From assembly GCA_964202455.1 (NCBI GenBank), contig CAXNIJ010000004.1, positions 36,483-100,482 of the forward strand: DNA of 64,000 bases. The letters are read 5' to 3'. Numbering within the stretch: the stretch's first letter is position 1; each line of letters opens with the position of its first letter. Positions 13,517 through 63,215 of this stretch are shown one piece after another. The notes beneath the pieces were generated by a model, which had not been told where the DNA came from, made no database searches, and was given only the letters and a program-made list of their open reading frames with translations. Made by a program: the position numbers and the translations under genes. The stretch is from Candidatus Pacearchaeota archaeon (GTDB lineage: Archaea > Nanobdellota > Nanobdellia > Pacearchaeales > GW2011-AR1).

Positions 13517-13762
13517 TTACTCATAAACTTCTTTTCGATGTTCAAAGCGTAAGAAATGGATAGTGTTATTGAAAAATGAATAAATGATTCTGTATGGTCT
13601 AACATATACTGTTCGTTCACCTTTCAAGTCATATCGTAAAGGCTTGCCTGTTTCAGGACTAGCAATAATTTTGTTAATCTGTTTTACCGCTTGCTGTTTG
13701 ACAGAAGTATCTGCTTTTTTGAACTCCCGTTCAAATTTTTCAGTATAGATTACTTCTACCAT
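13517..13762 (-). CDS. RelE/ParE-family toxin
   Basis: 81 aa: ...ETGKPLRYDLKGERTVYVRPYRIIYSFFNNTIHFLRFEHRKEVY. Overlaps the upstream antitoxin gene by 7 nt. Confidence 0.8.
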   Translation of the reverse strand: MVEVIYTEKFEREFKKADTSVKQQAVKQINKIIASPETGKPLRYDLKGERTVYVRPYRIIYSFFNNTIHFLRFEHRKEVYE

Positions 13763-16068: not shown

Positions 16069-16851
16069 TTATCCTCTAAGAGCAATTGTATTTCCCGATT
16101 CATATCTTCTAAGTCCTTTGTAAAATAACCAGATGGCAAATGCAGAAGAAGCGATCATAAATCCAATTAAAATAATAAACCATTCTAAATTGAAGCTCTT
16201 AAGAAGTTCTACTGGGACTCCACTTATGAATCCTGCTGGAATAACAAATAGAAGAAGGAATTTGCTGAACCCTGAGAATACTGAATAAGGATATGTTGAG
16301 AAAATAATCAGAGTTTCGTTTGCAGTCCTGGCTCCTGCTTCAAATCTTCCTGTGAAAAATGCTATTGAACCGAAGATGATTGCATAGTTTAGAAAAAAGA
16401 CTGCTCCGCAAATCACTAATAATATAAATAAAGGAACTTGGCTCCAACTTAATATAAATAATGATATAAATATTCCGAAAAAGAGATCTCCTGTCGCTGG
16501 ATACCTCAACTTTGCAATTGAGTGAAGCAGGACATTTTTAGGGAGAGTGATAAAATAGTCTAGTGCTCCTCCTTCTATCATCGTTGCAATTCTTCTTACT
16601 TGACCAAAAAATACTCCAGTTAAACCAAAAGAAATAGTTACAATTGCATAAAGAAGTGCCATGTCATGAAAACTCCAACCGTTCATTGACTCGAATTTTT
16701 GGAATAGAATATACCAAAAGAAAATCCAAATCAGATTATTAAGAAACATTCCAAAAGACTGTGCAATAAAATTAAATCTATATTCCATTGCCGATGCTAG
16801 TTCTATTCCGAAGAATTTCTTTAGAAAAACAAGATGATTTCTAACCCCCAT
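16069..16851 (-). CDS. ABC-2 type transporter permease
   Basis: Six-TM protein immediately downstream of a paralogous permease and an ABC ATPase. The start is taken at the internal Met (MGVRNHLVFLKKFF). Confidence 0.7.
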   Translation of the reverse strand: MGVRNHLVFLKKFFGIELASAMEYRFNFIAQSFGMFLNNLIWIFFWYILFQKFESMNGWSFHDMALLYAIVTISFGLTGVFFGQVRRIATMIEGGALDYFITLPKNVLLHSIAKLRYPATGDLFFGIFISLFILSWSQVPLFILLVICGAVFFLNYAIIFGSIAFFTGRFEAGARTANETLIIFSTYPYSVFSGFSKFLLLFVIPAGFISGVPVELLKSFNLEWFIILIGFMIASSAFAIWLFYKGLRRYESGNTIALRG

Positions 16852-17632
16852 GTGATGTGACCTCCTTGAGTCCTTTTTTGTAAATAAATGCAAGTATTCC
16901 TAAAAAGACAATTATCCAGATAACTTGTCCGACTATTGCTTTGATAAAATCTGAGAGATTGAAATGGATGAATAGCTTTGCAGGAAGATACATTATATAA
17001 GTTGTTGGAAGTTCTGCTGTAATTTGTCTTAACCAAAGAGGATAGAAGTCTAGTGGTACTAGCATTCCACCTAAGACGAATAAAAACTTCTGATAAATCC
17101 ACATTAATGCTGTGACATCTTCTAACCAGAGTGCTAAAAGAGAAAGACTTAGAACTATCAAGAAGCTTATTATTGCTGAGCCGATAATTAGAAGAGAAGT
17201 TAAAATCAATCCTATCAATGTTACTTGAATTGGTCCCACATAGAAATATGCTAGAAGAATGCCTGCAGTCCCTACTATTGCAAAAGTAGAAATAAATTCA
17301 GCTAATAAAATACAGAATTCTCTGCCTGCATAATGGTATGGCTTTAGAAGAGCGCTGGTAATTGCTCCTGAACGAATTTCTTCTCCTAAAGAATCTATTC
17401 TAACTGAACCGGTAGAAAATAGAATTACTTCGGTTAGAGTTAAGTACCAAATCATCTGAGCAATGGTGTATCCATCAATTGCAGATTTTCCTGCATAAAC
17501 TGTTTTCCAAATCTGTAAGAAAATGAAAAGAATCATTGCAAGAACTACTGTTCTAGTAGCCATATTCCAGAAATGAGAAAACTGCTCGATCAAATACATT
17601 TTGATAATTGCCAGATATTTTTGTATTTTCAT
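16841..17632 (-). CDS. ABC-2 type transporter permease
   Basis: 263-aa polytopic protein that overlaps the ATPase stop by 4 nt. Confidence 0.7.
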   Translation of the reverse strand: MKIQKYLAIIKMYLIEQFSHFWNMATRTVVLAMILFIFLQIWKTVYAGKSAIDGYTIAQMIWYLTLTEVILFSTGSVRIDSLGEEIRSGAITSALLKPYHYAGREFCILLAEFISTFAIVGTAGILLAYFYVGPIQVTLIGLILTSLLIIGSAIISFLIVLSLSLLALWLEDVTALMWIYQKFLFVLGGMLVPLDFYPLWLRQITAELPTTYIMYLPAKLFIHFNLSDFIKAIVGQVIWIIVFLGILAFIYKKGLKEVTSHGG

Positions 17633-18606
17633 CTTCTGTATAGCTCTTCTATAATTTCTTCTATTGGTGGATCTTCAATAACAATATCTTCTATTTCATA
17701 TTTTGAAAGAAATTTATCTAAAACTTTTCTTATTGAAGTTCTAGTTCGGTCTATTTCGGCAATTACTTTATAGGGTTCTTGGTGAATAATTTTCACATAA
17801 GGCATTTTTTCTAGGTGTTCTACTGGTTCTTCAAAATAGAGCTCTAAAATTTTATGCTTTATCTTGTCTTTTATGGAATCCATTGAACCTTCATAGACTA
17901 TTTTCCCATGATTTATTACAATTATTCTTGGGCAGAGTTCTTCAATATCCTTTATATCATGGGATGTTAGAATTATAGTAGTTTTCTCTTGCTCATTTAA
18001 TTTTTTGATAAATTCTCTCATTTTCTTCTTTGCTATTATGTCTAGACCTATTGTGGGTTCATCTAGGAAAAGAACTTCTGGCTTATGGAGTAAAGAAGCT
18101 ACGAATTCACACCTCATCCTTTCGCCCAGAGAGAGTTTTCTAACTGGAGTCTTCATTAGATCTTGTATCTCGAATAGTTTTACTAAAGAGTCTCTCCTTT
18201 TTTCATATTCTTTTTGATCTAAGTCGTAGATTTTTGAGAAAAGGTCAAATGAGTCTATTGCTGGGAGATGATATGAAAGTTGCTGTCTCTGACCAAAAAT
18301 AGTTCCTATCTTGTAAGCTAATTTAACTCTATCTTCTTGAGGATTAAATCCTAGAACAGACATTCTGCCTGAAGTTGGAAATAAAATTCCTGAGAGCATT
18401 TTTATTGTTGTGCTTTTACCTGCTCCGTTAGGACCAATGAACCCTACAATTTCTCCTTTCTTAATTTCAAATGAGAGATTGTCTACTGCCTTGACTGTTT
18501 TGTAAACTGGACGAAGCATACTTTTGAATGCCCCTTTTAATCCTGGATTTTTTACTTTTGTCTTAAATTCTTTAGAAACTCCTTTTACAATTATTGCATT
18601 CTCCAT
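17629..18606 (-). CDS. ABC transporter ATP-binding protein
   Basis: Walker A GPNGAGKSTT, signature LSLGERMR, Walker B LFLDEPTIGLD, H-loop TSHD. The start is taken at MENAIIVKGV (18606). Confidence 0.9.
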   Translation of the reverse strand: MENAIIVKGVSKEFKTKVKNPGLKGAFKSMLRPVYKTVKAVDNLSFEIKKGEIVGFIGPNGAGKSTTIKMLSGILFPTSGRMSVLGFNPQEDRVKLAYKIGTIFGQRQQLSYHLPAIDSFDLFSKIYDLDQKEYEKRRDSLVKLFEIQDLMKTPVRKLSLGERMRCEFVASLLHKPEVLFLDEPTIGLDIIAKKKMREFIKKLNEQEKTTIILTSHDIKDIEELCPRIIVINHGKIVYEGSMDSIKDKIKHKILELYFEEPVEHLEKMPYVKIIHQEPYKVIAEIDRTRTSIRKVLDKFLSKYEIEDIVIEDPPIEEIIEELYRR

Positions 18607-18634
18607 GCTCTTTTCTTTAACGAGAAGAGAGTTT

Positions 18635-19309
18635 TTAATTCTTCGTTTCATGCTTTTTGACGGCATTGTATATTCCCTGCTTGTTATTTGAGTAATAGGC
18701 CCACATTCTATCTCCATAAGACCAATGCCACCATTCTAGTGGATAGTTAGTGAATCCGACTTTTTTCATCAGATCAATTAACAATGAACGATTTTTTTGT
18801 TCTTCTTCTGTCAAGCCATTGCAGATAGTATGTGCTTTTTCGGATATTGAATTAATCTCTGAACCCATTGGCAATTCTTTTCCAGCTACATCAACTAAAG
18901 TTATGTCTACTGCTGCGCCAGTTGTATGGGGGGGAATAGTTTCTGGATTTGCAACCCACTTGTCTGTTTCTAAAATAAGTTCTTCTTTAGTCATTGATTG
19001 ATTTTTTTCTTTTATTTCTTCAAATACTAACTTATAGAGTTTTTTCTGTGTATCTAATGAACGAAAGCCATCTATGACTTTTATCTTAATGCTTTTATGA
19101 AGAAGAGATTGAGCTTGAGAGAGCATTATCGCAACACTTTCTCTGATGAAGCATTCGTCTTCCTTGAGATTTTCATATTCTCTTGAGAAAGAATTTATTT
19201 CTATGATGATATCTTTTGAATAATCTCTAAGTGAAACTAGAGATTCTTTTGATTCTATAACTGGAATTTTCATTAATTCAAAATCTGAAATTACTTCTTG
19301 TTCATTCAT
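18635..19309 (-). CDS. M15D D-alanyl-D-alanine dipeptidase (VanX/DdpX-like)
   Basis: DGFRSLDTQKKLY, PPHTTGAAVDITL and EWWHWSYGD correspond to the VanX zinc-ligand and catalytic motifs. Confidence 0.8.
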   Translation of the reverse strand: MNEQEVISDFELMKIPVIESKESLVSLRDYSKDIIIEINSFSREYENLKEDECFIRESVAIMLSQAQSLLHKSIKIKVIDGFRSLDTQKKLYKLVFEEIKEKNQSMTKEELILETDKWVANPETIPPHTTGAAVDITLVDVAGKELPMGSEINSISEKAHTICNGLTEEEQKNRSLLIDLMKKVGFTNYPLEWWHWSYGDRMWAYYSNNKQGIYNAVKKHETKN

Positions 19310-20025
19310 GATAATCTTTCTATCCTCCCTGTTAAAGATATGCCTGAATTAGTTTTTTCTACTTTCAACAAACCGCCAGGCATGAATATTTTTGATTCTC
19401 CTGTTTCTAGAGCAGCGGCAATTGAACCAGTTCCACATGCTGCAGTAAAGTCTTCTACTCCGGTTTCGAATGTCTGCGCAAATATTCCTTGATTAATCTT
19501 TTTTACAAATGTAATATTCGCGCGGTGTTTTTTTCTTAAAGAGCTGGCTTTTGTTTTGAAGTTCTCTAGAGAGTCTACAATTATCACTTTATGTATGACT
19601 CCCCCAATATTCCAACAATTATTTATTTTCCATACTTTTGAAAATTCTACCTTAACTTCTTCTCCAATTATATTATATCTAAATGATCTTCCGAATGAAT
19701 AAATCGTGCCATTATTTTCTACTAGTCCTTTGGTGTGAGTTGCAAATACACAGACGCGTAAAGCATTACCACAATTATCTCTTGAGCCATCTGGATTAAA
19801 AAATTTCATTATTAATTTCTTGTTAGATTTTAATTCTAGAAAAGAAAGACCCTCTGCGTTATGCTTTTTACAGAGTTTTATTATATTCGATTTAGAGAGG
19901 GTTTTCTTATTAAAAAAACGATGCGCCACCCTACCTTGAAAGGGAGGGTTTACGTCAAATTCCTTGATATTAAAAAATAAGATAAATCTATTATGGTTGC
20001 CATGCCATATTTCAAAGTTATTCAT
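19306..20025 (-). CDS. DapF-fold PLP-independent epimerase/racemase (diaminopimelate-epimerase-like)
   Basis: FEIWHGNHNRFILF (compare F.KmhGlGNDF), FNPDGSRDNCGNALRVC and AACGTGSIAAA. Both catalytic Cys motifs are present. At 239 aa it is short for DapF. Confidence 0.7.
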   Translation of the reverse strand: MNNFEIWHGNHNRFILFFNIKEFDVNPPFQGRVAHRFFNKKTLSKSNIIKLCKKHNAEGLSFLELKSNKKLIMKFFNPDGSRDNCGNALRVCVFATHTKGLVENNGTIYSFGRSFRYNIIGEEVKVEFSKVWKINNCWNIGGVIHKVIIVDSLENFKTKASSLRKKHRANITFVKKINQGIFAQTFETGVEDFTAACGTGSIAAALETGESKIFMPGGLLKVEKTNSGISLTGRIERLS

Positions 20026-32231: not shown

Positions 32232-34277
32232 ATGATGAATAGGATACAATTTGATTCTGCTGGAAGAATTATAGGAGTAGACAATAAACTTGCTAGCTTT
32301 CCTATGCATAAAATTCAAGAGAATTATGAAGATGAAGAAAAATTTGATAGTTCTCTTAAAACTAGCGATTCTCTTTCTTTTATGAAAGATGAATCTTTTG
32401 ACAATGTAACAGATTCTTCTTCATGGAGTTTATATGCGGATAAAAATAAACTCCCGCCTTTAAAATTCTCTAATGGAAAGACTCAAGAAGATGTTGTGAA
32501 TGAAGTAATTGATCTTGTAAAAAAAGGAAAGAAAATAATATTCCTCCATGGAGTTTGCGGAACTGGAAAAAGTGCTATTGCGCTTAATATTGCAAGAATA
32601 CTTGGAAGAACATCTGTTGTTGTGCCTGTAAAAAATCTTCAGAAACAATATGAAGAAGATTATACTTCAAAAAAATATGTTTTGAAAAAAAATGGGCAGA
32701 AAATGAAAATAGCTATGATTACTGGAAGAGATAATCATGATTCAGTTATTTTCCCAGGAGTTTCGTGCGCAGATCAGAATTTACCGGATACAATAAAACT
32801 TACTGAAAAAAATCTTTATAAACTAGAAGAATATTATTTGAAAAACCCATATATAAAAAATAAAGAAATTCCTGAAATTAAAAATTTAAGAAGAATTGCA
32901 ATTGCTCCAGCAAATCCTTATTGGAGTCCAATATTGCCTGCAGAAATTGAATTGCCTGTCTTAAGGGATGCAAAGAAGAAAATGTATCGAGGTCTAAATG
33001 GAAAAGACTTTGTATTTTATCATAGAAAAGCGGGATGCTCTTATTATGACCAATACCTTGCTTATTTGCAGGCAGATGTAATTATTTTTAATGCTGCTAA
33101 ATATAAAATTGAAGTTTCACTAGACAGAAAACCTGCAACTGAAATAGAAATAATTGACGAAGCTGATGAATTTTTAGATAATTTTTCAATGCAAGATTCT
33201 CTAAATCTTACTCGCCTCTCCTCTTCTCTTTCCTCAATTGCGCCAGAAAATCCTGAAGCTAGGATAATAGTTGAAACTATAGAAAACCTTTTAGGACTAG
33301 AGGAAAAAAATAAACAAGCATTGGGAGTTGATGAAAATAAAATCCACCCTATAAAAGAAACACAATGGGAAAAAATCCTTAAACTATTTCTTAAGCATCC
33401 TGAAGTTGAAGCAGAAATAGCTATTGATGAAATGCATTATGCAAATAGGGCTCTTGAAGTTTCAAAGAATTTTACAGATTTTCTAGAAGATACATACATG
33501 ACATATAAAAGAATAGACAAGGATATATTTGTGAATTTTGTGACTACAAATCTTTCTAAAAAATTTGAAGAAATTGTTCAAAAAAATAAAGCGATGGTTA
33601 TGATGTCTGGAACACTACATTCTGCTACAGTTCTCAAAGAGATATTTGGAGTTAAAGATTTTGAAATTGTGGAAGCCGAATCTATTCACCAAGGTACTAT
33701 TGAAATCCATAGAACTGGAAAAGAATTTGATTGTAGATATTCTAACTTCAATTCAGGCATACATACACGTGAACAATACTTGCAAGTTCTTTCTTTATGT
33801 GTTGAAAAGGCTAAGCGCCCTACACTAGTACATGTTAATGCATTTGAAGATCTTCCAACAGAATATGAAATACAAAAATTAGGTTTATCTAATTTAGTAT
33901 CTAAAGAAAGACTATTATCTATGCAATTAGAAGATAAAACTGGATCTATGGTCTCTGCATTTAAATCTAAAAAGACGGATATTTTGTTTACTACAAAATG
34001 TTCAAGAGGAGTTGATTTTCCTGGAGAGATGTGCAATTCAGTAGTTTTTACTAAATATCCAAATCCTAATGTAAATGGAGTTTTTTGGAAGATTCTTCAA
34101 AAAACTCATGAAAAATATTTTTGGGATTTTTATAGAGATAAGGCTAGAAGAGAATTTTTACAAAGAATTTATCGTGCACTTAGATCTCAAAGTGACCATG
34201 TTTATGTTCTTTCTCCAGATTCTAGAGTACTGGACGCTACAAAGAGTTTACAGATGGCAAAACCAACCTTTAAATAG
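32232..34277 (+). CDS. XPD/DinG-family (Rad3-related) superfamily 2 helicase
   Basis: Walker A GVCGTGKSAIA, motif II IIDEADEF, motif III MSGTL, GVDFPGEMCNSVVFTKYPNP, motif VI-like QRIYRALRSQSDHVYVL. No four-Cys Fe-S module was seen. Confidence 0.7.
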   Translation: MMNRIQFDSAGRIIGVDNKLASFPMHKIQENYEDEEKFDSSLKTSDSLSFMKDESFDNVTDSSSWSLYADKNKLPPLKFSNGKTQEDVVNEVIDLVKKGKKIIFLHGVCGTGKSAIALNIARILGRTSVVVPVKNLQKQYEEDYTSKKYVLKKNGQKMKIAMITGRDNHDSVIFPGVSCADQNLPDTIKLTEKNLYKLEEYYLKNPYIKNKEIPEIKNLRRIAIAPANPYWSPILPAEIELPVLRDAKKKMYRGLNGKDFVFYHRKAGCSYYDQYLAYLQADVIIFNAAKYKIEVSLDRKPATEIEIIDEADEFLDNFSMQDSLNLTRLSSSLSSIAPENPEARIIVETIENLLGLEEKNKQALGVDENKIHPIKETQWEKILKLFLKHPEVEAEIAIDEMHYANRALEVSKNFTDFLEDTYMTYKRIDKDIFVNFVTTNLSKKFEEIVQKNKAMVMMSGTLHSATVLKEIFGVKDFEIVEAESIHQGTIEIHRTGKEFDCRYSNFNSGIHTREQYLQVLSLCVEKAKRPTLVHVNAFEDLPTEYEIQKLGLSNLVSKERLLSMQLEDKTGSMVSAFKSKKTDILFTTKCSRGVDFPGEMCNSVVFTKYPNPNVNGVFWKILQKTHEKYFWDFYRDKARREFLQRIYRALRSQSDHVYVLSPDSRVLDATKSLQMAKPTFK

Positions 34278-34330: not shown

Positions 34331-34555
34331 ATGGTAAAATCTGGGAAAAGTGCTGAAAGCGTGGTTGTAATACTCTTAAGAATGGTTCTTTGGATTACTG
34401 GAGTTCTTGTTGCTCTTGCAGTTGGATTTGGAATGATTGATGGATTTCTCTTAATTCCGGGACTTGTTAAATCGACAGTGGTTGCTGGATGGATTGTAGT
34501 TATCTTAACTGTTGTCGGAGCAGTACTTGCAATAATTGAAAGACTAACTAAGTAA
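34331..34555 (+). CDS. small two-TM membrane protein
   Basis: 74 aa with two hydrophobic helices. GGAGG lies upstream of the ATG. Confidence 0.5.
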   Translation: MVKSGKSAESVVVILLRMVLWITGVLVALAVGFGMIDGFLLIPGLVKSTVVAGWIVVILTVVGAVLAIIERLTK

Positions 34556-34583: not shown

Positions 34584-36041
34584 TTAGATGACTTTTCTAA
34601 ATTTTAGAAATCCTTCTAAATCTTCAATTATTTTATTTTGAGGTATTCTATGATCATCTAGATTTCTTCTCCAAATTTCTCTATCATTTTTATCTGTAAT
34701 TAATGCCATGTCCCAATATAACCAGAGTCTTGATCCGTCTTTGAAAATTCCATCTCTGTATTTTTGAACTAACTTCCCTCTTGTTTCAGCTCTTGTTTTT
34801 GGAGGAATTACCATTCCTCGCTCCGCATCTCTTTGAGAAACGTGCTGTTCTATCCAACCATCGGATAGCGTTTGATAAAATAATCCTCCTTCATCGATTC
34901 TATGATAGTCTAAGTTTATACTTTGAATTAATGGACTATCAAACTCGAGATTATCTGCGCCAGCCATTCTTTCTATAAGATATTTTTTTGTGACCCAATC
35001 TAGTCTTCCCGCTAGTGTATAAGGATCATTTTTGATTCTTTCTAATTTATAAATAGTATCTCTAAATAAATCTAGAACTAAATTTCTAAAAGAATCTTGA
35101 CCATAAAATTCAGTGCGCATCACCTCTTCATATTTTCTTAAAACTGAAGTCGCTTTCATATATTCTTTTGGAGTTCCATCTAAGGTCCAGTCTTGATGCT
35201 GGGAGCAAACATTTTTTAAATCAGTTATTGCAAAATCACAATCTTTCTCAGCATAATAGGGTATTTGTGGAAGTAACCTATTTTCGTGTAAAGCAAGAAC
35301 ACACTGCATTAATTCTTGCTTCATTGCTAACGCACTTTGACACATGTTTGCATCGTTACTAATATGATGAAATCTATACCATCCTCTCAGACCCGTTAAA
35401 GGTTCATTTCTTGTATTCATCAATCCCCTTCCCGTGACTCCTGCGCGAGTATCCAAAGAAAAAGCTCTTTGTATGAAATTTTTTCTTTGTGATATCTCAA
35501 ATTGCCCTTCTGGATATTGATAACCTGCTCCGGTAATAATTTTTTCAACAACTGACCAGAGAAGAAGAGGCCCTAATGTCAATTCAGAAGGTTCAAATCT
35601 GGTACTGAAATTTTGATGAGCTCCGAAGCTTATTCTACTATCTCGATTCATTTTATAAATTAAGGGAGATAAATCTCGATCATCAAATATATTTAATGCT
35701 AAAAAATCTGTTGCCCTGTCTTGTTTTATTAGTTCTCTAGTATCTAAGCATTCTGGAGTACTTCCTTCTAGATGCTCTAAGTCACAATATATAACTCCCC
35801 CGTTAGGGAGATTTCTCCAATATGCTCCGGTTAGCATAATACTTTCATTATGTGCTGGAGAAGAAATAGTATTTAATTGAGAAATCTTTTCACAGATGTA
35901 TCTGTCTCTTTCATCTTCATTTTCTATATTTGGAAACTCTATTGCATATTCATGTTCAAGACCTTGTACTTTTCCATCAAAATTTACCTTGGGACTTGAT
36001 TGATGAAATTCATTTCTAATAAATCTTTTTGGGAAATTCAT
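34584..36041 (-). CDS. Pup-ligase/deamidase family protein (PafA/Dop homologue)
   Basis: Collinear matches to PafA along the whole length: GLEHEYAI (GIETEFG), LPNGGVIYCDLEHLEGSTPEC ([22 protein letters not shown]), RDSRISFGAHQNF (TDSAGNSYGCHENY), IITGAGY (LICGAGK), NTRNEP (NTRDEP), RLDWVTKKYL (EIDWVIKRKL), LDYHRID (LAYHDIK), PPKTRAETRG (PPQTTRARLRG). Confidence 0.85.
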   Translation of the reverse strand: MNFPKRFIRNEFHQSSPKVNFDGKVQGLEHEYAIEFPNIENEDERDRYICEKISQLNTISSPAHNESIMLTGAYWRNLPNGGVIYCDLEHLEGSTPECLDTRELIKQDRATDFLALNIFDDRDLSPLIYKMNRDSRISFGAHQNFSTRFEPSELTLGPLLLWSVVEKIITGAGYQYPEGQFEISQRKNFIQRAFSLDTRAGVTGRGLMNTRNEPLTGLRGWYRFHHISNDANMCQSALAMKQELMQCVLALHENRLLPQIPYYAEKDCDFAITDLKNVCSQHQDWTLDGTPKEYMKATSVLRKYEEVMRTEFYGQDSFRNLVLDLFRDTIYKLERIKNDPYTLAGRLDWVTKKYLIERMAGADNLEFDSPLIQSINLDYHRIDEGGLFYQTLSDGWIEQHVSQRDAERGMVIPPKTRAETRGKLVQKYRDGIFKDGSRLWLYWDMALITDKNDREIWRRNLDDHRIPQNKIIEDLEGFLKFRKVI

Positions 36042-36116
36042 AAATTAAAAGAAATATTGAGTATTTTAAAGATAATGGTGGTCTTGTTCTATATTACTGA
36101 AAGGGTTCTGTTTTTT

Positions 36117-36884
36117 TCAACATATGACATCGTATTCTTGAAGATTGAATATGTTAATTGTCCTTCTAGGAATCCTAAGCCTTAGCGCATTTGAGTTTTT
36201 AGGTATTTTATCATGAATAAGGTGCTCGTAGACTCTCCGTACTAGCTCACAGAGACCATTATCTCGCGTTACAAGCGTTACGGGATTAGTGTATGCAACG
36301 ATGAATGTGGTTGCAACCAAGTGGTTGTCTGTTTCGAGATTCTTTCCTAAATATACTTTGTTGCTCATATGTTCTTTTGCTCTCTGTGATTTACGCTCTA
36401 AGTCTTGTGAGAGATCTCTTGCCGCGTCCATAAAATGAAGATAGTTATCTTGCTGTTGCAAAGATTTATCACTTACATTTGACTTTAATTTCTTCAGAAA
36501 TCTATGCAATTCGAGATTATATGAATAGATAACATCGAGAATGCTTCTGCAGTAAGAAATATTTTCTATTGATTTTGTTTGCATTGACATCCTCATTTCA
36601 TCTTGAATGTGACTTTCTTGTTTAATTAGTATATCTAAATGATATTGTACTTCAGTATATACCTGCGGAATTATTCTAACTTTATTTTTTTGCATAACTC
36701 TGGTTAGTTCGTTTAGACGCTCAAAACGACGGGAGAATATATTATCATCTAGTATCTTAAAAGACTCGAGACCGTCGTACAAGAGCGTGGGAAGTGATGT
36801 CTCTTCATGAGAGTTTACTGCAGATGTGTCTATAAGAATAATATCGTCATTAGTTCTCTGTTCAAGTTCAATTACTAGATCCAT
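36117..36884 (-). CDS. PIN-like domain protein with a long helical insert
   Basis: IILIDTSAV, YTEVQ, ETDNHLVATT and VTLVTRDNGL are spaced like the four PIN acidic positions. The G+C content is visibly higher than in the flanks. Confidence 0.55.
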   Translation of the reverse strand: MDLVIELEQRTNDDIILIDTSAVNSHEETSLPTLLYDGLESFKILDDNIFSRRFERLNELTRVMQKNKVRIIPQVYTEVQYHLDILIKQESHIQDEMRMSMQTKSIENISYCRSILDVIYSYNLELHRFLKKLKSNVSDKSLQQQDNYLHFMDAARDLSQDLERKSQRAKEHMSNKVYLGKNLETDNHLVATTFIVAYTNPVTLVTRDNGLCELVRRVYEHLIHDKIPKNSNALRLRIPRRTINIFNLQEYDVIC

Positions 36885-36941: not shown

Positions 36942-38219
36942 CTACTTTATTTCTATCTTCTTCTTCTCATGCATATATGGCAAAAGAACATCTGGAATTT
37001 TAATAGAACCGTCTTTTTGCTGATAGTTTTCTAGAATGGCCACCATTGCCCTAGAAGTAGCTATAGCTGTATTATTTAGCGTGTGTGGAGTATAACGACC
37101 CTCTTTTCCATCTGTACGAATTTTTAACTTCTTTGCTTGTGCTTCTGTTAAATTTGAACATGAACCTACTTCAAAATATTCTTTTCTTCTTGGAGACCAT
37201 GCTTCTATGTCTACTTGAATGTGCTTTAGATCTCCCAAATCTCCTGAGCAGATCCCTAGAATACGAATGGGGATTTCTAATGCCTTAAAAATTTCAATAG
37301 TAATTCCCTTGAGTTCTTCAAAAAACTTCATAGATTCACTCGGCTTACAAATAACGATCATTTCTATTTTGTTAAATTGATGAGTCCTATATACTCCCTT
37401 TTCATCTATTCCGTGACTTCCAACTTCTTTTCTAAAACACATGGAATAACTGGTGTGTTTTATGGGAAGATTTTTTTCTGGAATAATTGTGTCAATGTAT
37501 CTGCCTATCAGAGAATGCTCGCTTGTTCCAATCATGTAAAGATCTTCTCCATCTATTTTATAGATTTGATTCTTTTGATCGTTTAAGTCAGTTACATTGT
37601 TTATTATTGAACCACGAAGCATTAAGGGTGTCTCCACATAAAGAAATCCTTTCTTAACCATTGTATCTATTCCAAATCTAATTAATGCTTGATTCAATAA
37701 TGCTAAATCTCCTTGAATATAATAGAATCCATTTCCTGAAGTCTTTGCTGAAGAATCGAAATCTAGTACTCCTAATTGCTCCCCTAATTCAACATGACTT
37801 TTTACTGGAAATGAAAAATTTATTGGTTTTCCTATAGTCTCTAGAGTTACATTCTCTGAAGAATCTTTTCCTAATGGGACTGATGAGTGCATGATATTAG
37901 GAAGTTGATTTAAAATTTCTTGGACTTCTTCCTCTTTTTTTTGTGCTTTAGCCTCTATTTCTTCTATCTGTTCTGGAATATTCTTAGCTTTTTTCATAAC
38001 TGCATCTGCATTCTTACCTGCTTTTTTGAGTTCACTAATTTCTTTAGAAATTTTATTTCTTTGAGACCTTAACTCGTCTGCTTCTCCCTTAAGTTTACGC
38101 CATTCTCCGTCTTTTTTAAGAGCCTCATCAACAAGTTTTAACTTTTGATTCTGAAATTTATTTTTAACATTTTCTTTAATTACATCTGGATGTTCGCGGA
38201 GAGTTTTTATGTCGACCAT
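36942..38219 (-). CDS. serS: serine--tRNA ligase
   Basis: N-terminal coiled-coil arm. Class II motifs: FRKEVGSHG, TEAQAKKL and the NNTAIATSRAMVAILENYQ tail. Confidence 0.9.
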   Translation of the reverse strand: MVDIKTLREHPDVIKENVKNKFQNQKLKLVDEALKKDGEWRKLKGEADELRSQRNKISKEISELKKAGKNADAVMKKAKNIPEQIEEIEAKAQKKEEEVQEILNQLPNIMHSSVPLGKDSSENVTLETIGKPINFSFPVKSHVELGEQLGVLDFDSSAKTSGNGFYYIQGDLALLNQALIRFGIDTMVKKGFLYVETPLMLRGSIINNVTDLNDQKNQIYKIDGEDLYMIGTSEHSLIGRYIDTIIPEKNLPIKHTSYSMCFRKEVGSHGIDEKGVYRTHQFNKIEMIVICKPSESMKFFEELKGITIEIFKALEIPIRILGICSGDLGDLKHIQVDIEAWSPRRKEYFEVGSCSNLTEAQAKKLKIRTDGKEGRYTPHTLNNTAIATSRAMVAILENYQQKDGSIKIPDVLLPYMHEKKKIEIK

Positions 38220-41643: not shown

Positions 41644-42636
41644 CTACTTTTGTTCTAAAGGTGGGCCCTTAACATGTTTAACGATGGCCTGGCTTCTTTT
41701 TTTCAGATGCTCTGAAAGTGCGAAAAATGTTAATAATGCTCCAGCAATTGTTGAAAATATTATAGCATATTCTTTTATTTTTGTAATTGATGATGCTTTT
41801 TTTACAGATTCTATTTTTTTCTCTTGATCTTCTAATTCTTCTTTTGCAAGTATTACGCTTGCCTGAGCTTTCTGGACTTCCCCAGATATTATATTTGTTT
41901 CTGTTTCTCTAAGATCGATTTTTATTTGATTTAGACTAATGTCTGATACATCATAATCCTCGTTTTTTTTCTCATTGAGTTTAGATTCTAAATCGAGATA
42001 TTTTTGTTTTATTGCTTTTAACTCTGAAGTTATATTTTGAATCAATTGAATCTTTAACTTTTCAGAATTTTCCTTTTCCAGATTAGAAATATTGCTTGGC
42101 GCAATAACAGTTATATTTTTATAAAATATAAAACTCTGTATTTTTATTGTTAGAAGAATTGTTCCAGATTCTTTGAAATTGCCAGTGATAAGAAGATATC
42201 CTTTTTCTTCAGGATTGAGTGAATCAATCGGGAGTACATCGTAAGTTGAAAATCCTTTAGCTGTCACAAGCGCAAGGATATTTTTTTGTGTCTCCGTACC
42301 TGCATTTTCTATTTGAAGTGTCATTTGAATATCTCCTAATTTAAATTCTTGAGGAATTATATTTTTTATTAAAAGAAGAGTTATATTTTCTTTTTTAGGC
42401 AGAGCCACATTAGGAGATTTTTCAGGAGTCATATTTGTTGTATTAATCGATAAAGATAGCGCTGAGAAATCTGATTCATTTATTATGGTGCTTTTTATCT
42501 GAGTCATCAAAGAAGAGTTCTCGTCTGCACTTATTAGTGGAAATAACATAATCGCAATCATTAAAAATATAAATATTGTCTTTTTCATGTTGTGTGTATT
42601 CGTTAAAAGCATTCTTAAATCTTGCTCTTTACTCAT
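41644..42636 (-). CDS. hypothetical secreted protein with a C-terminal TM anchor
   Basis: Signal-like N-terminus IFIFLMIAIMLFPLISA, a coiled-coil region and a C-terminal TM (AIIFSTIAGALLTFFAL). Confidence 0.55.
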   Translation of the reverse strand: MSKEQDLRMLLTNTHNMKKTIFIFLMIAIMLFPLISADENSSLMTQIKSTIINESDFSALSLSINTTNMTPEKSPNVALPKKENITLLLIKNIIPQEFKLGDIQMTLQIENAGTETQKNILALVTAKGFSTYDVLPIDSLNPEEKGYLLITGNFKESGTILLTIKIQSFIFYKNITVIAPSNISNLEKENSEKLKIQLIQNITSELKAIKQKYLDLESKLNEKKNEDYDVSDISLNQIKIDLRETETNIISGEVQKAQASVILAKEELEDQEKKIESVKKASSITKIKEYAIIFSTIAGALLTFFALSEHLKKRSQAIVKHVKGPPLEQK

Positions 42637-45600
42637 TTTTTCTTCTAGTATCTATAAAATGTGTGATTCCTGCTACAATTAGAATTATTAAAACTACCCA
42701 AATTATGTTTTTCCAATTTAAATATGAAGCAGATCTAACTTGGGGCAATGATGGAGAAGTAGTATTTTTATTTTCGATTGAAATATTTGAAGGGCTTATA
42801 TTTTTTACTTCTGAATCGGTAATTGAAGGGCTTATTGAATATGAAATAAGTTCATTTATTGTCTGTATAGTTAGAGAGGCTTTATCCTTGGTTATACTTT
42901 CTACTTTAACATAAAGATTATAATATTTTGGAGAAGTTAAATTTAGTTTTATACTTTGTCCTGCTCCTAAAAGAAAATTTATTGGCTCGCTCCTTATAGT
43001 AATATTGACTCTATTTTCGCTAACTGCCTCAACTGTAAGTGAGTGTTGTACTGATTTTTCGTCAAAAAGAGTAAATTTCACTTTATCTTCCTTTTTTAAT
43101 TCTTGAGTAAATCCATTTGATGTCTGTTGTTCACTAAGACTAAATGTGCTTGCGGTGGCTCCCCCGCCTCCTCCTCCGCCGCCACCGCCACCGCCACCAG
43201 AAGAACTTACCGAGGGTGAAGAAGGAGCAGTAATCGTTAGCGTTCGTGCACTTGCATTGCCCACGTTTCCTGCAATATCTGTGCAATTAATACTCCAATT
43301 ATAACTCCCTGGTCCCATTGTTAATGAAAATGACTGATTAAGAGATTGATTAATGAAAGTGCTGTTCGTTGTATTCACTGCTCCATCGATAATGAGCGAG
43401 CAACTGGAAAGGTTGAGATTATCCGTAGTATTGTAAGTGAAATTTAATGAAAGAGAGGAAATTGTTTCTGCATAATTATTTGCTGGAGAGATAATTGTGA
43501 TATTTGGAGCAGTGAAATCTATAGTAAAGTTTCCTGCGAATGAACTATTGAAGTTTCCCGCCGTATCATTGCAGTAATAAGTAACATTATAATTTTGGTC
43601 TTGAATTAGAGTCAGATTTGTTGCATTGAATGTTCTATTATCTGTTGCGCCCATTGAATAGTTTGCAACTCCATGATTAAGGGAATAGAGGCAACTCCCA
43701 TTTTCATTTAAAGTTATGTTAAACCTTCCTTGATTGTAATAGCTTCCGTTGAGAGGAGAAGTAACGTTAATAATTGGCAATGTTAGATCATATGTAATTG
43801 TTTTATTTGTAGAAGCAAATGTTGCGATATTAGTATTGTCTCTAAACAAACAATTCCAAGTGTACACTCCTTCTGCTGTGAAATTAACTGTGAAGTTTTT
43901 AGTAGCACTTGTTCCAGAAATATTACTAAAACTGATATTCATTGCATTGCTTGAACTGTTCCAGAGATAGAACGTGACATTAGTAATATTAATTCCAGAA
44001 CTTACATTACAGATATACGTCTGATTTTGATTTGTGATTACTCCAGAAGAAGGAGATATAAGATCTATGATTGAACCGGAGATAGTAATTGTATTATTCA
44101 AAGTTGCAAACGTCTTATTATTATTTTCATCTGTAAAGAGGCAGTTCCAAGTGTATGTTCCACTTGTAATGTTTGTAATATTGACCTGCAAAACTGCCGC
44201 ACTTCCATTGACATTTTGCGAAGTTTGATTTGTGATTGAAGAAGGTGCATTCCAGAGATAGAATGTTCCATTTTTAATTGCCAAATCTGTCGCATTACAG
44301 TTAAAGGTTTGATTGATGTTAATTGATGCGGCCGCATTTGCTGGAGAGATAAGTGTAACATTTGGTGCAGAATTGTCCAAAGAGATTATTGATGCGTAGA
44401 TATTTATGAGTGAATAATTAAGATTTGATGCTCCATCATATATTCTCTTTCCTGTAGAGTTAAGCACCGATTTTAGTTGTGCAGGAGTTCTTGACTGTCC
44501 GGTATTATTTAAATATTGATTAAGAATCATAATCGCGCCAGCAACATGGGGTGTTGCCATGCTTGTTCCGCTAATAGAACAATAAGATTTTCCTGCACCA
44601 CATGCAGTCAAAACTGTTCCTGCTGGAGCAGTAATCATTGTTGAGTTAATGTTGAAACCTGGAGCGATGAGCTGCACCAAGGCGTTTCTGTTGTAGTTGA
44701 ACGTTGAGCTGTCTTTTTGTATGCTCCCCACGGCCGTTGCGTTTTGTACACATGCTGGGCCACTTATTTGCGTTGTTGATCCATCGTTTCCTGCTGCAAT
44801 AACAATTGAGATGTTATTTTTGAAAGCGCTGTCTATATATGGCGTTAATGTATCTGTTCCATCACAATTATTGGTAGAGAGACCACCACCCAGACTCATG
44901 CTAATAACTGAGATATTATAACGAGTTGCATTTCCGATACACCAGTTAATTCCGGCAGCTACGTTTGTATCAGTACAACTTCCTGAAGAACTACATGCTT
45001 TGATTGCAATAATTTTTGCCTGCGGAGCGACACCATTTATTGTACCATTAGCAGCAGCAATGCCTGAAACGTGCGTGCCATGACCATTATCATCCATGGG
45101 ATCGCTATCGCCATTTACAAAATCATGACCGCCTATAATTTTACAGGGTGAAGATGCATTGTTGTTACCGAAACAACTGCCTAAATCTGAATGACTATAA
45201 TTTACTCCAGTATCTATGATACACACTGTTTGTCCTGCGCCAGTTAAATTTAATGTACCTACTTGAAGAGAAAGTGTGCGAGTAGCATTAACTAAAGGTG
45301 TTGAATCTTGTAATGAAATGTGACGAATCCCTGCCTCTTGCACTTTTTCAATGTCAGGGTTATTTTCAAGCTGGTTTAATTCATCTAAAGTGATATATGC
45401 AGAAATAGCTCCTTCGCTCTCAAATTCATGTTCACGATTCTTGATATTAATTATTTTTAATTTTTCCTTTTGTGTTTGGACTGATCTCTTAATTGAGGTT
45501 TGTGTAGGTTCTTTTTTTGCGTATATAAATACATGAACCGTATATTCTTGTGCTACTTTTTTATATATTTCAGAAGTTATTTTTCTTTCTTTTTTTCCAG

Positions 45601-45676
45601 AATCTTGTCCAGTTACAATGCCTAATCCCAGAAGAATAAGCGAAATAATTAAAATGATTGTGAAGATTCTCTTCAT
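42629..45676 (-). CDS. subtilisin-like (S8) serine protease with repeated beta-rich domains, a poly-Gly linker and a C-terminal TM anchor
   Basis: Catalytic triad contexts DTGVNYSHSDL, HGTHVSGIAAA and SGTSMATPHVAG. There are dozens of N-x-S/T sequons. The run SSSGGGGGGGGGGGGATAS is encoded at about 43160-43200. Confidence 0.9.
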   Translation of the reverse strand: MKRIFTIILIISLILLGLGIVTGQDSGKKERKITSEIYKKVAQEYTVHVFIYAKKEPTQTSIKRSVQTQKEKLKIINIKNREHEFESEGAISAYITLDELNQLENNPDIEKVQEAGIRHISLQDSTPLVNATRTLSLQVGTLNLTGAGQTVCIIDTGVNYSHSDLGSCFGNNNASSPCKIIGGHDFVNGDSDPMDDNGHGTHVSGIAAANGTINGVAPQAKIIAIKACSSSGSCTDTNVAAGINWCIGNATRYNISVISMSLGGGLSTNNCDGTDTLTPYIDSAFKNNISIVIAAGNDGSTTQISGPACVQNATAVGSIQKDSSTFNYNRNALVQLIAPGFNINSTMITAPAGTVLTACGAGKSYCSISGTSMATPHVAGAIMILNQYLNNTGQSRTPAQLKSVLNSTGKRIYDGASNLNYSLINIYASIISLDNSAPNVTLISPANAAASININQTFNCNATDLAIKNGTFYLWNAPSSITNQTSQNVNGSAAVLQVNITNITSGTYTWNCLFTDENNNKTFATLNNTITISGSIIDLISPSSGVITNQNQTYICNVSSGINITNVTFYLWNSSSNAMNISFSNISGTSATKNFTVNFTAEGVYTWNCLFRDNTNIATFASTNKTITYDLTLPIINVTSPLNGSYYNQGRFNITLNENGSCLYSLNHGVANYSMGATDNRTFNATNLTLIQDQNYNVTYYCNDTAGNFNSSFAGNFTIDFTAPNITIISPANNYAETISSLSLNFTYNTTDNLNLSSCSLIIDGAVNTTNSTFINQSLNQSFSLTMGPGSYNWSINCTDIAGNVGNASARTLTITAPSSPSVSSSGGGGGGGGGGGGGATASTFSLSEQQTSNGFTQELKKEDKVKFTLFDEKSVQHSLTVEAVSENRVNITIRSEPINFLLGAGQSIKLNLTSPKYYNLYVKVESITKDKASLTIQTINELISYSISPSITDSEVKNISPSNISIENKNTTSPSLPQVRSASYLNWKNIIWVVLIILIVAGITHFIDTRRKNE

Positions 45677-54450: not shown

Positions 54451-54699
54451 TTAATCATAAACATTTTTTCTATGTCCAATTCTAACTACAATTACCTTAT
54501 TCATTGAAACAATGACATCTACTATCGCTCGATAATCTGATATTCGAAGTCTCCAGAGCTTCTCTCCCTGAAGTCTTTTTAAAAATCTAAATGGATTCTC
54601 GCGAATAGAGTATAGTTTATTTAATATTAATTCTGCATCTTTTTTTTCTATGTTCTTTAGAAATTTTTCAGCATTCTCCTCTATATGAATTGAATACAT
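54451..54699 (-). CDS. RelE/ParE-family toxin
   Basis: ...NPFRFLKRLQGEKLWRLRISDYRAIVDVIVSMNKVIVVRIGHRKNVY. Confidence 0.8.
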   Translation of the reverse strand: MYSIHIEENAEKFLKNIEKKDAELILNKLYSIRENPFRFLKRLQGEKLWRLRISDYRAIVDVIVSMNKVIVVRIGHRKNVYD

Positions 54700-54700
54700 T

Positions 54701-54937
54701 TTATTTGAGAGTTATTCCCAACTCTTTAGCGACCATCTCTATAGTCTTTACTTTTCCTTTTCTTACGTTTTCAAGTCCTATTTTTATTTCTTCAATTTCT
54801 TTTTCGCTCAATACTTCTTCTTCCTGATTATCAATAAGATTGTTAAGAAGATCATTATAAGTCTGCATTTCTACGCTTTTTAGAGCTTTTAGTCTATCTA
54901 ATGTACTCTGATCGATTTGAATCGTTGTCTTCTCCAT
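54701..54937 (-). CDS. antitoxin (RHH-like) of the adjacent RelE-type toxin
   Basis: 78-aa acidic protein whose stop lies 1 nt before the toxin start. N-terminal TTIQIDQSTLDRLKALK is RHH strand-helix-like. Confidence 0.65.
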   Translation of the reverse strand: MEKTTIQIDQSTLDRLKALKSVEMQTYNDLLNNLIDNQEEEVLSEKEIEEIKIGLENVRKGKVKTIEMVAKELGITLK

Positions 54938-56087: not shown

Positions 56088-57368
56088 TTAATATCCGCTT
56101 GAACAATTCAAACAAAGCATTCTAGTCATTCCTCTTCCTGGGACAATATGGTTTTTACAGAACTCTTTAAAACAGCGACCGCATTTCTTAGTGCACTTCT
56201 TGCAATATTCTCTTCCACAATGATTACATGGTTTAAAACCGCAGAGTTTGCAAGATCCGAAAAGGCAACTCTTGCAGGGCAAACTGCAAGATTTACAAAT
56301 AACGTGACCAGATGAACAGATAGTTAGAGAGGAAAGAGAATTTGTACAACTTTCACATTCTACTGTCGAAAGTTCATTTTCTTTTGAATTATATCTGAAA
56401 TTTAAAGGTTTACCTATGACTTCAGAATTTTTCAATAGCATTGTACAATTGTAAATTGGATAATACATGACGGTAGTATTGAGAAGTTTTGTATCCATGT
56501 TTAGACCGTGCTTTTGCATTTCGTCATGGAGAAGAAATTCTTTTTCTTTTGTAAGTTTTGACTTTTTATCTTCTTCTGTAATTTTTTGAAGAGATTCAAT
56601 TATTTTCTTTACTCTGGCTGAAGCTTGAGAAGAAGTATCTGGAGAACGAGCAATTAATTTTTCTAGTTCTGCTTTTTGATTAATTAAATAATTAATTTGT
56701 TTATCTATTTCTTGTTCTTGCCTTTGATAGTGGGAAGTAATTCTCTGAATTTCTTTTGAGAGCTTGTCTTTTAGAGTTACGCTTATTTCTTGTATTTGAG
56801 GTTTGATAAGTTCTTTTAATCTTTCTCTAGCTGAAAGGTAATTATCTTTTATTCCTGCGATCTCAATATCTTCTTTTTTTCCCTCATCGAATTGGTAGCG
56901 TTTTTCATCAAACTCTATGGGCTTTCCATCTGCAAGGTAAATAGAAATCATCTTTTGGTCTTTTTCATTAAGATATTGGAAAGTGGTAAGAAAAGTGAAA
57001 CGAATAATTACTTTGTACTCGTGTTTTTTCTCGAAAGAAAATATTTCACAATTATTAAATACTATTTTATGTTTTATTAATTCTTTAGGATCTAGTGCGT
57101 GAACCTTAAGCAAGGTCGTCTGTCCTTTTTTTTCTAGATAGAGTGCCATTGCCTTGAGAAGGAAACTTCCTTTTGCTATTAGTTCTGTTTCTGAATTTTC
57201 TTCTGAGCGATCGAAGACTAACTTATAGGGTGAGCGTTTTCCGAAAAAGTCTTCAAAATCCTTTGGAATTTTTTCAACAACTAAAATTTCTCCGTTCCAG
57301 ACTGTTTTTGCCCCCAGATTCTTGAAAAAACTTGCTGTGAATTCTTTAAGCTCCGCCAATTCCTTCAT
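56088..57368 (-). CDS. SNF2-associated protein: N-terminal globular domain, coiled coil, and a C-terminal multi-zinc-ribbon (about 24 Cys)
   Basis: Starts 2 nt after the SNF2 stop. The C-terminus reads CESC...CSSGHVICKSCSLPCKSCLFGSCKLCGFKPCNHCGREYCKKCTKKCGRCFKEFCKNH...CLNC. Confidence 0.7.
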   Translation of the reverse strand: MKELAELKEFTASFFKNLGAKTVWNGEILVVEKIPKDFEDFFGKRSPYKLVFDRSEENSETELIAKGSFLLKAMALYLEKKGQTTLLKVHALDPKELIKHKIVFNNCEIFSFEKKHEYKVIIRFTFLTTFQYLNEKDQKMISIYLADGKPIEFDEKRYQFDEGKKEDIEIAGIKDNYLSARERLKELIKPQIQEISVTLKDKLSKEIQRITSHYQRQEQEIDKQINYLINQKAELEKLIARSPDTSSQASARVKKIIESLQKITEEDKKSKLTKEKEFLLHDEMQKHGLNMDTKLLNTTVMYYPIYNCTMLLKNSEVIGKPLNFRYNSKENELSTVECESCTNSLSSLTICSSGHVICKSCSLPCKSCLFGSCKLCGFKPCNHCGREYCKKCTKKCGRCFKEFCKNHIVPGRGMTRMLCLNCSSGY

Positions 57369-59308: not shown

Positions 59309-59428
59309 TTTCCTCTCTTATTAAAATTGAATTTAATTTGAGTATTTAATGATATAGATAATTCGGTTGATGTGTTTTTTTGATGGTTGGTTAAACTATA
59401 TAAGCCATCAAATCTTATTCGAAAAGCT

Positions 59429-60715: not shown

Positions 60716-60719
60716 AGTA

Positions 60720-63214: not shown

Positions 63215-63215
63215 T

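Follow-up and report, generated by a model that had tools for sequence, protein, structure and literature searches.

A PafA/Dop-family enzyme of a DPANN-specific lineage without a neighbouring Pup gene

What does an enzyme of the PafA/Dop family do in an archaeal genome in which no gene for the protein tag Pup stands beside it? This question is raised by a 64,000-nucleotide stretch of a Candidatus Pacearchaeota contig (assembly GCA_964202455.1, contig CAXNIJ010000004.1, positions 36,483 to 100,482; hereafter the window), whose minus strand encodes at 34584..36041 a 485-aa carboxylate-amine ligase/amidase of the Pup_ligase family (PF03136), called the ligase below for brevity. The enzymes of pupylation have been placed in Actinobacteria, Nitrospirae and a few other bacterial phyla by the founding comparative analysis (PMC2588565), a 2012 review (PMC3511204), a phylogenetic study of 2020 (PMC7947786) and a 2025 review (PMC12288473). 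Archaeal homologues are unmentioned in all four, and the word 'archaea' is absent from the 2020 study. A full-text literature search, incomplete in its coverage, found no published description of archaeal members. It is already known from NCBI automatic annotation that archaeal relatives bear the name PafA2 family. What is new is a DPANN-specific, Pup-less PafA/Dop lineage with a conserved linkage to the seryl-tRNA synthetase gene serS, occasional tandem duplication and a conserved neighbour of 255 aa.

The ligase gene starts with ATG and forms an intact, full-length frame. Its product matched the PF03136 profile with 192.2 bits (cut-off 25; E = 2.1e-56) in the hidden Markov model (HMM) comparison, and the match spans protein residues 75-431, equal to profile positions 70-431 of 441. 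In a sequence search against solved structures, the best match was Dop (4B0R, E = 2.8e-25), followed by PafA (4B0T, E = 2e-20), and the identity to actinobacterial Dop and PafA was 22-27%. An AlphaFold2 (AF2) model computed from a 27-sequence alignment reached a mean predicted local distance difference test score (pLDDT) of 90.1 and a predicted template modelling score (pTM) of 0.90. Foldseek aligned this model with Dop and PafA at template modelling (TM) scores of 0.76-0.82, with E-values down to 1e-28 over 477-499 aligned columns; the Dop-Pup complexes scored 0.79-0.81 (7OXY and 7OYH, the latter 0.79/0.81) and the PafA-Pup complex 4BJR scored 0.77/0.76. The next-best fold was YbdK/GCS2 with TM 0.44, and the tail of the matches consisted of YbdK, glutamate-cysteine ligase (GCL) and glutamine synthetase (GS). 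The model contains both the GS-like N-terminal domain with its curved beta-sheet and the small C-terminal domain (residues 415-485, 34587..34799 on the minus strand, pLDDT 92-97), which is otherwise found only in pupylation enzymes (PMC3511204, PMC8599861) and is included in the Foldseek alignments, since these span 477-499 columns. The protein is therefore a full-length, genuine member of the PafA/Dop family, and the structural comparison with PafA that had been proposed in the initial annotation confirmed a shared fold.

Is the active site intact? All coordinates in this paragraph refer to the minus strand. The nucleotide- and Mg-binding strand GhExE reads G27-L-E29-H-E31 (35949..35963) and is equivalent to Dop E8/E10; across 27 family members E31 is invariant and G27 nearly so. 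The block D87-L-E-H90-L-E92-G-S-T-P-E97, followed by C (35751..35783), holds the catalytic aspartate D87 (Dop D94) and the Mg ligand E92 (Dop E99). A further Mg ligand, H142 (35616..35618; Dop H155), lies in a HENY motif that here reads HQNF, and the segment N209-T-R211-N-E-P214 plus R223-F-H225 (35367..35417) carries the conserved arginines and the Mg ligand H225 (Dop H241). The Mg ligands described for Acidothermus Dop are E8, E10, Y92, E99, H155 and H241 (PMC8599861), and all six are conserved as E29, E31, Y85, E92, H142 and H225. The alpha-loop region (residues 189-205, FIQRAFSLDTRAGVTGR, 35427..35477), strand plus coil in the model according to DSSP, contains L-D-T where Dop has G-L-E-T, and also R205, the equivalent of C. 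glutamicum PafA R201, which contacts the Pup C-terminus (PMC8599861). The active-site residues are invariant in an alignment with the nine closest relatives. Judged from these residues and the confident model, the protein is probably catalytically active.

Whether the enzyme is a ligase or a hydrolase was approached through the positions that distinguish Dop from PafA (Hecht et al., Table 1, PMC7947786). The NCBIfam equivalog models for Dop (TIGR03688) and PafA (TIGR03686) gave 135.5 bits (cut-off 492.3) and 119.2 bits (cut-off 551.3), both short of their cut-offs by a factor of about four. Beside the catalytic aspartate the protein is of Dop type, with D-x-x-H spacing lacking the one-residue insertion and with S-T-P-E. 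PafA-type features are absent, since it has C-D-L-E-H and not L-D-V-G-S-H, S-T-P-E and not A-T-A-E, and a coil, not a helix, at residues 196-204. The spacing between E31 and D87 is 56 residues, compared with about 85 in Dop; the equivalent spacing in PafA is about 46-53 residues (M. tuberculosis and C. glutamicum numbering). The Dop-loop, 37-40 aa before strand beta-2, is absent by both alignment and spacing. The site of the Dop-loop or PafA hinge is occupied by a low-confidence loop of about 20 aa (residues 55-76, 35814..35879, minus strand; pLDDT <50 at residues 63-72) that was aligned only in the window protein, P0002 and P0003 and is missing in P0004-P0009 (numbers prefixed P denote family proteins and those prefixed L compared loci).

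HMM, phmmer and Foldseek comparisons each slightly favoured Dop over PafA. The Dop-type D-x-x-H, S-T-P-E and L-D-T are matched, yet the same state is common among bacterial family members that are not Dop; as these cannot all be hydrolases, the state is probably ancestral and not diagnostic. With Dop-like residues around the catalytic aspartate and in the alpha-loop, and with the Dop-loop missing, the direction of the reaction is not readable from the sequence. The ancestor of PafA and Dop has been argued to be a ligase with promiscuous hydrolase activity (PMC7947786), and by analogy the window enzyme may be bifunctional. By its sequence the protein is classed as neither PafA nor Dop. It shares with Dop (PDB 4B0R, 7OXY, 7OYH) the beta-sheet cradle, the C-terminal domain, GhExE, the aspartate, the six Mg ligands and a predicted loop-type alpha-loop with L-[DE]-T, but it has a non-homologous loop in place of the Dop-loop, is encoded in an archaeon with no pup, arc/mpa or prcBA gene nearby, and falls outside the Dop clade. 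With PafA (PDB 4B0T, 4BJR) it shares the fold, the catalytic core, the lack of a long Dop-loop and the R205 equivalent, but not the D-V-G-S-H insertion, A-T-A-E, the helical alpha-loop, membership of the PafA clade or an associated Pup. The initial annotation had described the protein as matching PafA motif for motif; the three motifs it named are present in a full-length family member, but the low PafA score and the Dop-like surroundings of the aspartate do not bear out so close a match.

Is the gene truly archaeal? The DNA examined comprised the window and a further 10 kb of the contig, about 74 kb in total, the addition being taken from ENA contig ERZ27280223:k141_1010671 (133.8 kb), whose reverse complement contains the window. 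The 10 kb beyond the window start encode ribosomal proteins L7Ae, S28e and L24e and two replication factor C (RFC) subunits, and the window itself encodes archaeal-type phenylalanyl-tRNA synthetase (PheRS) alpha and beta subunits and a TrmB regulator. Syntenic GenBank contigs are named Candidatus Pacearchaeota archaeon (VGKP01) and Candidatus Woesearchaeota archaeon (CAZCXX01); some records list this group under 'Nanoarchaeota'. The GC content of the ligase gene is 0.335 and that of its third codon positions (GC3) 0.21, the same as in the neighbouring serS, helicase and PIN_9 genes, and the local gene order is repeated in independent ENA, JGI, NCBI and Logan assemblies. Since PF03136 members in databases are overwhelmingly bacterial, the contig might be suspected of being bacterial or chimeric, or the gene of having come recently from Actinobacteria. 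This explanation is scarcely credible: taken together, the archaeal markers, the base composition and the recurring gene order rule out both a chimeric contig and recent acquisition from a bacterium of high GC content, and the identity to actinobacterial Dop and PafA is low. The assignment to an archaeal genome is thus upheld. Because the GC and GC3 values equal those of the neighbours and the ligase gene follows serS in about eight diverged lineages of DPANN, the evidence points to vertical inheritance within DPANN, which speaks against horizontal acquisition, as the initial annotation had considered, in the sense of a recent event.

The divergence of individual genes at the locus is incongruent. 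SerRS is 76% identical to that of locus L008 and 46% to that of L005, the helicase (32232-34277) is 77% identical to its counterpart in L005 and 61% in L008, and the ligase is 70% identical to that of L002 and 41-43% to those of L005 and L008. Such identities suggest that related DPANN genomes have recombined or exchanged genes here.

In the window, serS (36942..38219, minus strand; Pfam Seryl_tRNA_N and tRNA-synt_2b), the 255-aa gene and the ligase gene follow one another in the same direction, and are then followed by a convergent 74-aa gene, an XPD-like helicase gene and a PIN_9 gene. The order serS to ligase was found in L002, L005, L008, L014, L021, L025, L068, L103 and L104, representing about eight diverged lineages, and the gap between the two genes is 18-62 nt where no gene lies between them. 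The comparison across DPANN genomes that had been recommended thus revealed a recurrent linkage. A single ligase copy is present in L002, L014, L025, L068 and L103. Two tandem paralogues are found in L005 (10001-13038; a Pacearchaeota metagenome-assembled genome, MAG) and in L020/L021 (L021 7851-10700; a 466-kb Nanoarchaeota contig). A tblastn search of the window with the L005 paralogue recovered only the ligase gene itself. In locus L022 (1085-4431), a gene for glutamyl-tRNA synthetase of archaeal type stands downstream of that for P0036, a more distant relative of low GC content. Besides serS, this is another aminoacyl-tRNA synthetase gene next to a ligase gene, and the adjacency may be a coincidence.

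The 255-aa conserved protein (36117..36884, minus strand) is a candidate functional partner of the ligase on the basis of synteny. Genes of this family, encoding 255-277 aa, lie between serS and the ligase gene in three lineages, namely in the window, L008 (9143-9973) and L104 (7152-7985), and in L104 the gene ends at 7985 and the ligase gene starts at 7986. Identities between lineages are 38-48%, a degree of conservation close to that of the ligase. In L068, a weak relative (E = 4e-5) was seen about 2.8 kb downstream of the ligase gene. No match to the 255-aa protein was obtained in Pfam, NCBIfam or a PDB profile search, and a single-sequence AF2 model had a pLDDT of 40. The invariant residues D19, E78, D186 and D208 form a PIN-like acidic pattern, and this pattern suggests a PIN-like nuclease with a long helical insert. 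The gene has a GC content of 0.350 and a GC3 of 0.31, compared with a GC3 of about 0.17-0.24 in the other measured neighbours. Of the earlier description of a PIN-like neighbour with elevated G+C, the acidic pattern and a modestly raised GC3 hold, but neither an HMM nor a PDB match supports it. The ligase had also been called an orphan; this is apt in that no Pup or proteasome gene is found locally, and less so in view of the tandem paralogues of its relatives and the 255-277-aa gene.

Does a Pup-like tag or a proteasome accompany the enzyme? No open reading frame (ORF) of at least 25 aa ending in G[QE] was present in the window, a stricter test than the initial annotation's limit of 60 aa and ending in GGQ or GGE; no Pfam proteasome subunit or AAA+ ATPase domain was matched among the window ORFs, and the further 10 kb held no proteasome gene, the AAA proteins there being of RFC type only, in agreement with the initial annotation. 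As positive controls, about 23 bacterial loci yielded small GG[QE]-ending ORFs of the Pup (QKGG[QE]) or UBact-like (...P[EH]GGE) kind, the latter in L017, L018 and L074-L097; the same scan returned none in about 12 low-GC archaeal loci. Where positions were checked in bacteria (e.g. L012, L017, L018, L039 and L047), the GG[QE] ORF lay beside the ligase or Dop gene. Pup and UBact HMMs built from the bacterial-locus sequences were run on 3,407 archaeal ORFs, and all matches had E >0.1, those to the UBact-like model all E >5. All-against-all clustering of small ORFs from 12 archaeal loci detected no conserved small gene travelling with the ligase; the clusters represented S10, DoxX, a 74-77-aa membrane protein, PIN_9 and antisense shadows of larger genes. 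A relative from the Candidate Phyla Radiation (CPR), P0053, whose cluster members are Candidatus Taylorbacteria or Parcubacteria, is likewise solitary, with no adjacent Pup.

Two individual ORFs were considered as tags and rejected. The 65-aa ORF downstream of the paralogue pair in L005 has no Pfam match and no acidic or GGQ end, and is not conserved. The 116/123-aa ORF upstream of cdc48 in L010 ends in ...FGE, and one such ending per locus is expected by chance; this ORF shows zinc-ribbon-like CxxC pairs by eye and has no Pfam match. In the same archaeal locus (L010 7550-11320, GCA_053535275.1, which also encodes PolB, FEN1 and AsnC), the gene of P0008, a more distant relative of the ligase, lies 138 nt downstream of a gene for a 770-aa CDC48/VCP-type AAA ATPase and in the same direction, an arrangement that echoes the actinobacterial arc-dop order.

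Several other relatives have neighbourhoods of their own. A stretch with a GC content of 0.45 (L070 3018-11297) encodes two ligase paralogues in tandem together with a CDC48-like protein and a protein closely homologous to Mpa/ARC (643 bits); no GG[QE]-ending ORF and no prcAB were detected in this stretch. Locus L013 (10-5587; GCA_964587045.1, GC about 0.5) contains a compact, co-directional array of genes for small uncharacterised proteins, three of them paralogues of about 100 aa with AYDMPNG[LM]TYIG; within the array lie the genes of two Pup_ligase paralogues, one of which is extended at its C-terminus by an additional domain of about 200 aa. In its arrangement the locus resembles an operon or mobile module. 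The P0053 enzyme itself (L099 6001-7404) ends in ...IEKGE, a Pup-like Gly-Glu C-terminus, which may be due to chance or may hint at self- or cis-modification.

Where does the protein stand within its family? A neighbour-joining, unrooted tree of 66 sequences (405 columns, 200 bootstrap replicates) separated all sampled Pup- and UBact-linked bacterial enzymes (actinobacterial Dop and PafA, bacterial PafA2) from the DPANN, CPR-like and other metagenomic sequences with 99.5% bootstrap. The window protein belongs to a serS-linked DPANN clade of 17 sequences (95%), and the actinobacterial Dop and PafA clades were each recovered with 100%. The phylogeny with PafA and Dop called for by the initial annotation assigns the protein to a DPANN clade separate from both. 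As the tree is unrooted and distance-based, the ancestral side of the split is not callable. A split of the archaeal sequences into two clades ('A' and 'B') was lost on bootstrapping, L021 copy 2 and L025 falling inside the broad serS-linked clade, and a special sister relation between CPR and DPANN sequences was dropped, with 12.5% bootstrap and identities similar to those with bacterial Dop.

When the nine closest sequences served as query, an exhaustive HMM search (E <=1e-3) returned 4,631 clusters at 50% identity, and scores fell sharply past the immediate clade (601, 436 and 342 bits). Of the 150 clusters with the best scores, many fall with the DPANN sequences and across the main split from the canonical Pup-linked enzymes; much of the diversity of the family is thus uncharacterised. 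The nearest further relatives are 'proteasome accessory factor PafA2 family' proteins, an automatic NCBI name, from Candidatus Pacearchaeota and Nanoarchaeota MAGs. When 185,579 GTDB species representatives were scanned with a narrow pattern, only two archaeal species were recovered. The bacterial 'PafA2 family' with UBact-like tags (Planctomycetes, Myxococcales, Latescibacteria, Nitrospirae and others) resembles the archaeal lineage as non-actinobacterial PF03136 members, often with D-x-x-H and T-P-E, some without linked proteasome genes, and shares the automatic name with the Pacearchaeota and Nanoarchaeota relatives; it differs in that position-checked bacterial loci have a ...P[EH]GGE small ORF beside the enzyme gene, and the archaeal loci never do. 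The CPR homologues (Candidatus Taylorbacteria / Parcubacteria; P0053, P0186) are also solitary, come from an ultra-small-celled groundwater lineage, fall on the DPANN side of the main split and share about 30-36% identity, but they have a bacterial host and a different neighbourhood without serS, and are not a specific sister group in the neighbour-joining tree.

These results bear on the idea that the ligase belongs to an ordinary acquired pupylation system whose Pup or UBact, second enzyme and proteasome genes lie elsewhere in the genome. Proteasome components are encoded by all archaea (PMC12288473), about 74 kb of contig were inspected, related genomes carry a second paralogue reminiscent of the PafA and Dop pair, and for one relative the gene immediately follows that of a CDC48-type AAA ATPase. 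Yet the bacterial Pup gene invariably adjoins the PafA gene (PMC2588565), as the GG[QE] ORFs in the bacterial loci illustrate, and the diverged archaeal loci contain none; moreover, the main split of the tree divides the lineage from every sampled Pup- or UBact-linked enzyme, and the genomes keep one copy or another and no fixed pair. On balance, an ordinary Pup system is improbable.

What, then, would the enzyme do? With moderate confidence, we favour an active enzyme, dependent on ATP and Mg, that does not act on Pup but makes or breaks a gamma-glutamyl amide bond on another substrate. This would most likely be a polypeptide whose gene lies elsewhere, with the Glu or Gln at its C-terminus as the target. 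Family membership, fold, intact active site, archaeal host, recurrent synteny and the lack of any Pup or proteasome gene nearby are shown by the data, and the chemistry, its direction and a protein as substrate are inferred by homology. In this scheme, ATP and Mg would be held by E29/E31, Y85, E92, H142 and H225, and the gamma-carboxylate (or gamma-amide) of the Glu or Gln would be phosphorylated. The free alpha-carboxylate of the same residue would be gripped by R205 and the alpha-loop threonine, and D87 would activate either an amine, leading by ligation to an isopeptide or amide bond, or water, leading to hydrolysis or deamidation. With the polypeptide not encoded next to the gene, the outcome would be Pup-independent tagging or de-tagging.

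Several points weigh against this proposal. The archaeal loci have yielded no substrate or modifier, and a protein substrate is suggested by the predicted fold; the R205 and threonine contacts would hold free glutamate equally well. Within the genome, a modifier, a second paralogue or proteasome genes could lie beyond the 74 kb examined. Several of the metagenomic loci were called archaeal from low GC and synteny only, and the tree is a neighbour-joining, unrooted one. Among the residues, the near-universal Glu of HENY is Gln in the window protein and varies within the subclade P0001-P0006; in L021 copy 1 the NTR arginine is lost and R-x-H reads R-I-Q, and H90, which follows the catalytic aspartate, is missing from L021 copy 2 and L025. 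Given the lost NTR arginine and Mg-ligand His, part of the DPANN clade may be non-catalytic. The same losses, with the change to HQNF and the faster divergence of the ligase (41-43% identity) than of the helicase and serS (60-77%), would fit a degenerate, non-catalytic relic or a pseudo-enzyme scaffold with a structural or regulatory role. For the window protein this is very unlikely, as it keeps all Mg ligands, the catalytic aspartate and the conserved arginines, invariant in its nine closest relatives, in a full-length intact frame with a confident model.

A more serious challenge to a protein-directed enzyme is a small-molecule gamma-glutamyl ligase or amidase acting on free Glu or Gln or on a metabolite, in the manner of glutamine synthetase, glutamate-cysteine ligase or YbdK, with no protein tag involved. 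The superfamily is built on this chemistry, as the Foldseek tail reflects; neither the archaeal loci nor the solitary CPR locus contains a modifier gene; the residues that grip the C-terminal Glu of Pup would grip free Glu too; and the reduced metabolism of DPANN and CPR organisms might recruit such an enzyme. Against this, the TM score is about 0.8 to Dop and PafA and at most 0.44 to any small-molecule enzyme, the C-terminal domain specific to pupylation enzymes is retained, the open beta-sheet cradle of the family suits macromolecular substrates (PMC3511204), and no metabolic genes were consistently linked to the ligase across the compared archaeal loci. We therefore regard a small-molecule enzyme as unlikely.

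Building on a Pup-independent enzyme acting on a polypeptide, a wider picture is put forward tentatively and remains doubtful as a whole. In the initial annotation, an undescribed archaeal carboxylate-amine tagging system had been the second alternative. DPANN archaea, and perhaps CPR bacteria, would possess a Pup-independent gamma-glutamyl protein tagging or de-tagging system based on their own PafA/Dop-like lineage, sometimes as tandem pairs or together with the 255-aa partner. Either a modifier unrelated to Pup and UBact or an ordinary protein's C-terminus would serve as the tag, and the system might feed the archaeal proteasome or CDC48, as hinted at by L010, or act on the translation apparatus, as hinted at by the serS and gltX adjacency. 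The archaeal tagging route to lysine isopeptide bonds is sampylation by SAMP and UbaA (PMC3511204). This route differs in both chemistry and fold, as it uses E1-type adenylation and a beta-grasp protein ending in Gly-Gly, and no such gene was seen adjoining the ligase gene.

The remaining features close to the ligase gene are minor. A TATA-box-like element (TTTAAAATA, 36062..36070, minus strand), read by eye 21-29 nt upstream of the ligase ATG, may be the gene's own promoter for a leaderless mRNA, weak evidence in such AT-rich DNA. A scan for sigma-70 promoters and terminators gave counts equal to chance expectation, is not meaningful for an archaeon and was set aside. The convergent neighbour at 34331..34555 (plus strand) is a real gene whose 74-aa product has two hydrophobic segments, as the earlier reading of a membrane protein would have it; L002, L005 and L008 also carry it, so that with the window it is conserved in four lineages. 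The protein is not Pup-like, as it ends in K and matched neither the Pup nor the UBact HMM.

Elsewhere in the window, a bacterial-type DisA-like diadenylate cyclase (DAC and DisA-linker) is encoded at 8021-9085 on the minus strand, and a bacterial-type cluster at 16069-20025 (minus strand) encodes a D-Ala-D-Ala dipeptidase (Peptidase_M15/VanY), a DAP-epimerase-like protein and an ABC-2 transporter, and possibly acts on bacterial cell-wall peptides. Large ORFs of 330, 1015, 680 and 426 aa without a Pfam match in the scans occupy 41644-45676 (minus), 5982-8024 (plus) and 56088-57368 (minus); the 680-aa protein is listed as PTPS_related in precomputed annotation, and a syntenic 1001-aa protein in L005 is a Peptidase_S8. 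Toxin-antitoxin-like modules lie at 2513-2908, 13517-13762 and 54451-54937, with a MazE/AbrB-type antitoxin domain and two RelE/ParE-like ORFs (81-82 aa), one of them adjoining a 78-aa partner. At 57371-63683, a SNF2-family helicase gene adjoins a PD-(D/E)XK nuclease gene, and the nuclease gene is followed by a copper-handling cluster comprising a P-type ATPase, a 70-aa HMA-like CxxC protein and two cupredoxin-like proteins.

A conserved and apparently active DPANN lineage without Pup implies a greater age or mobility for the enzyme family than for the Pup tag, and at least one function besides pupylation. If the substrate is a protein, Archaea would possess a second tagging chemistry that does not depend on a ubiquitin fold, and the lineage would offer a view of the role that the ancestor of PafA and Dop played before Pup.

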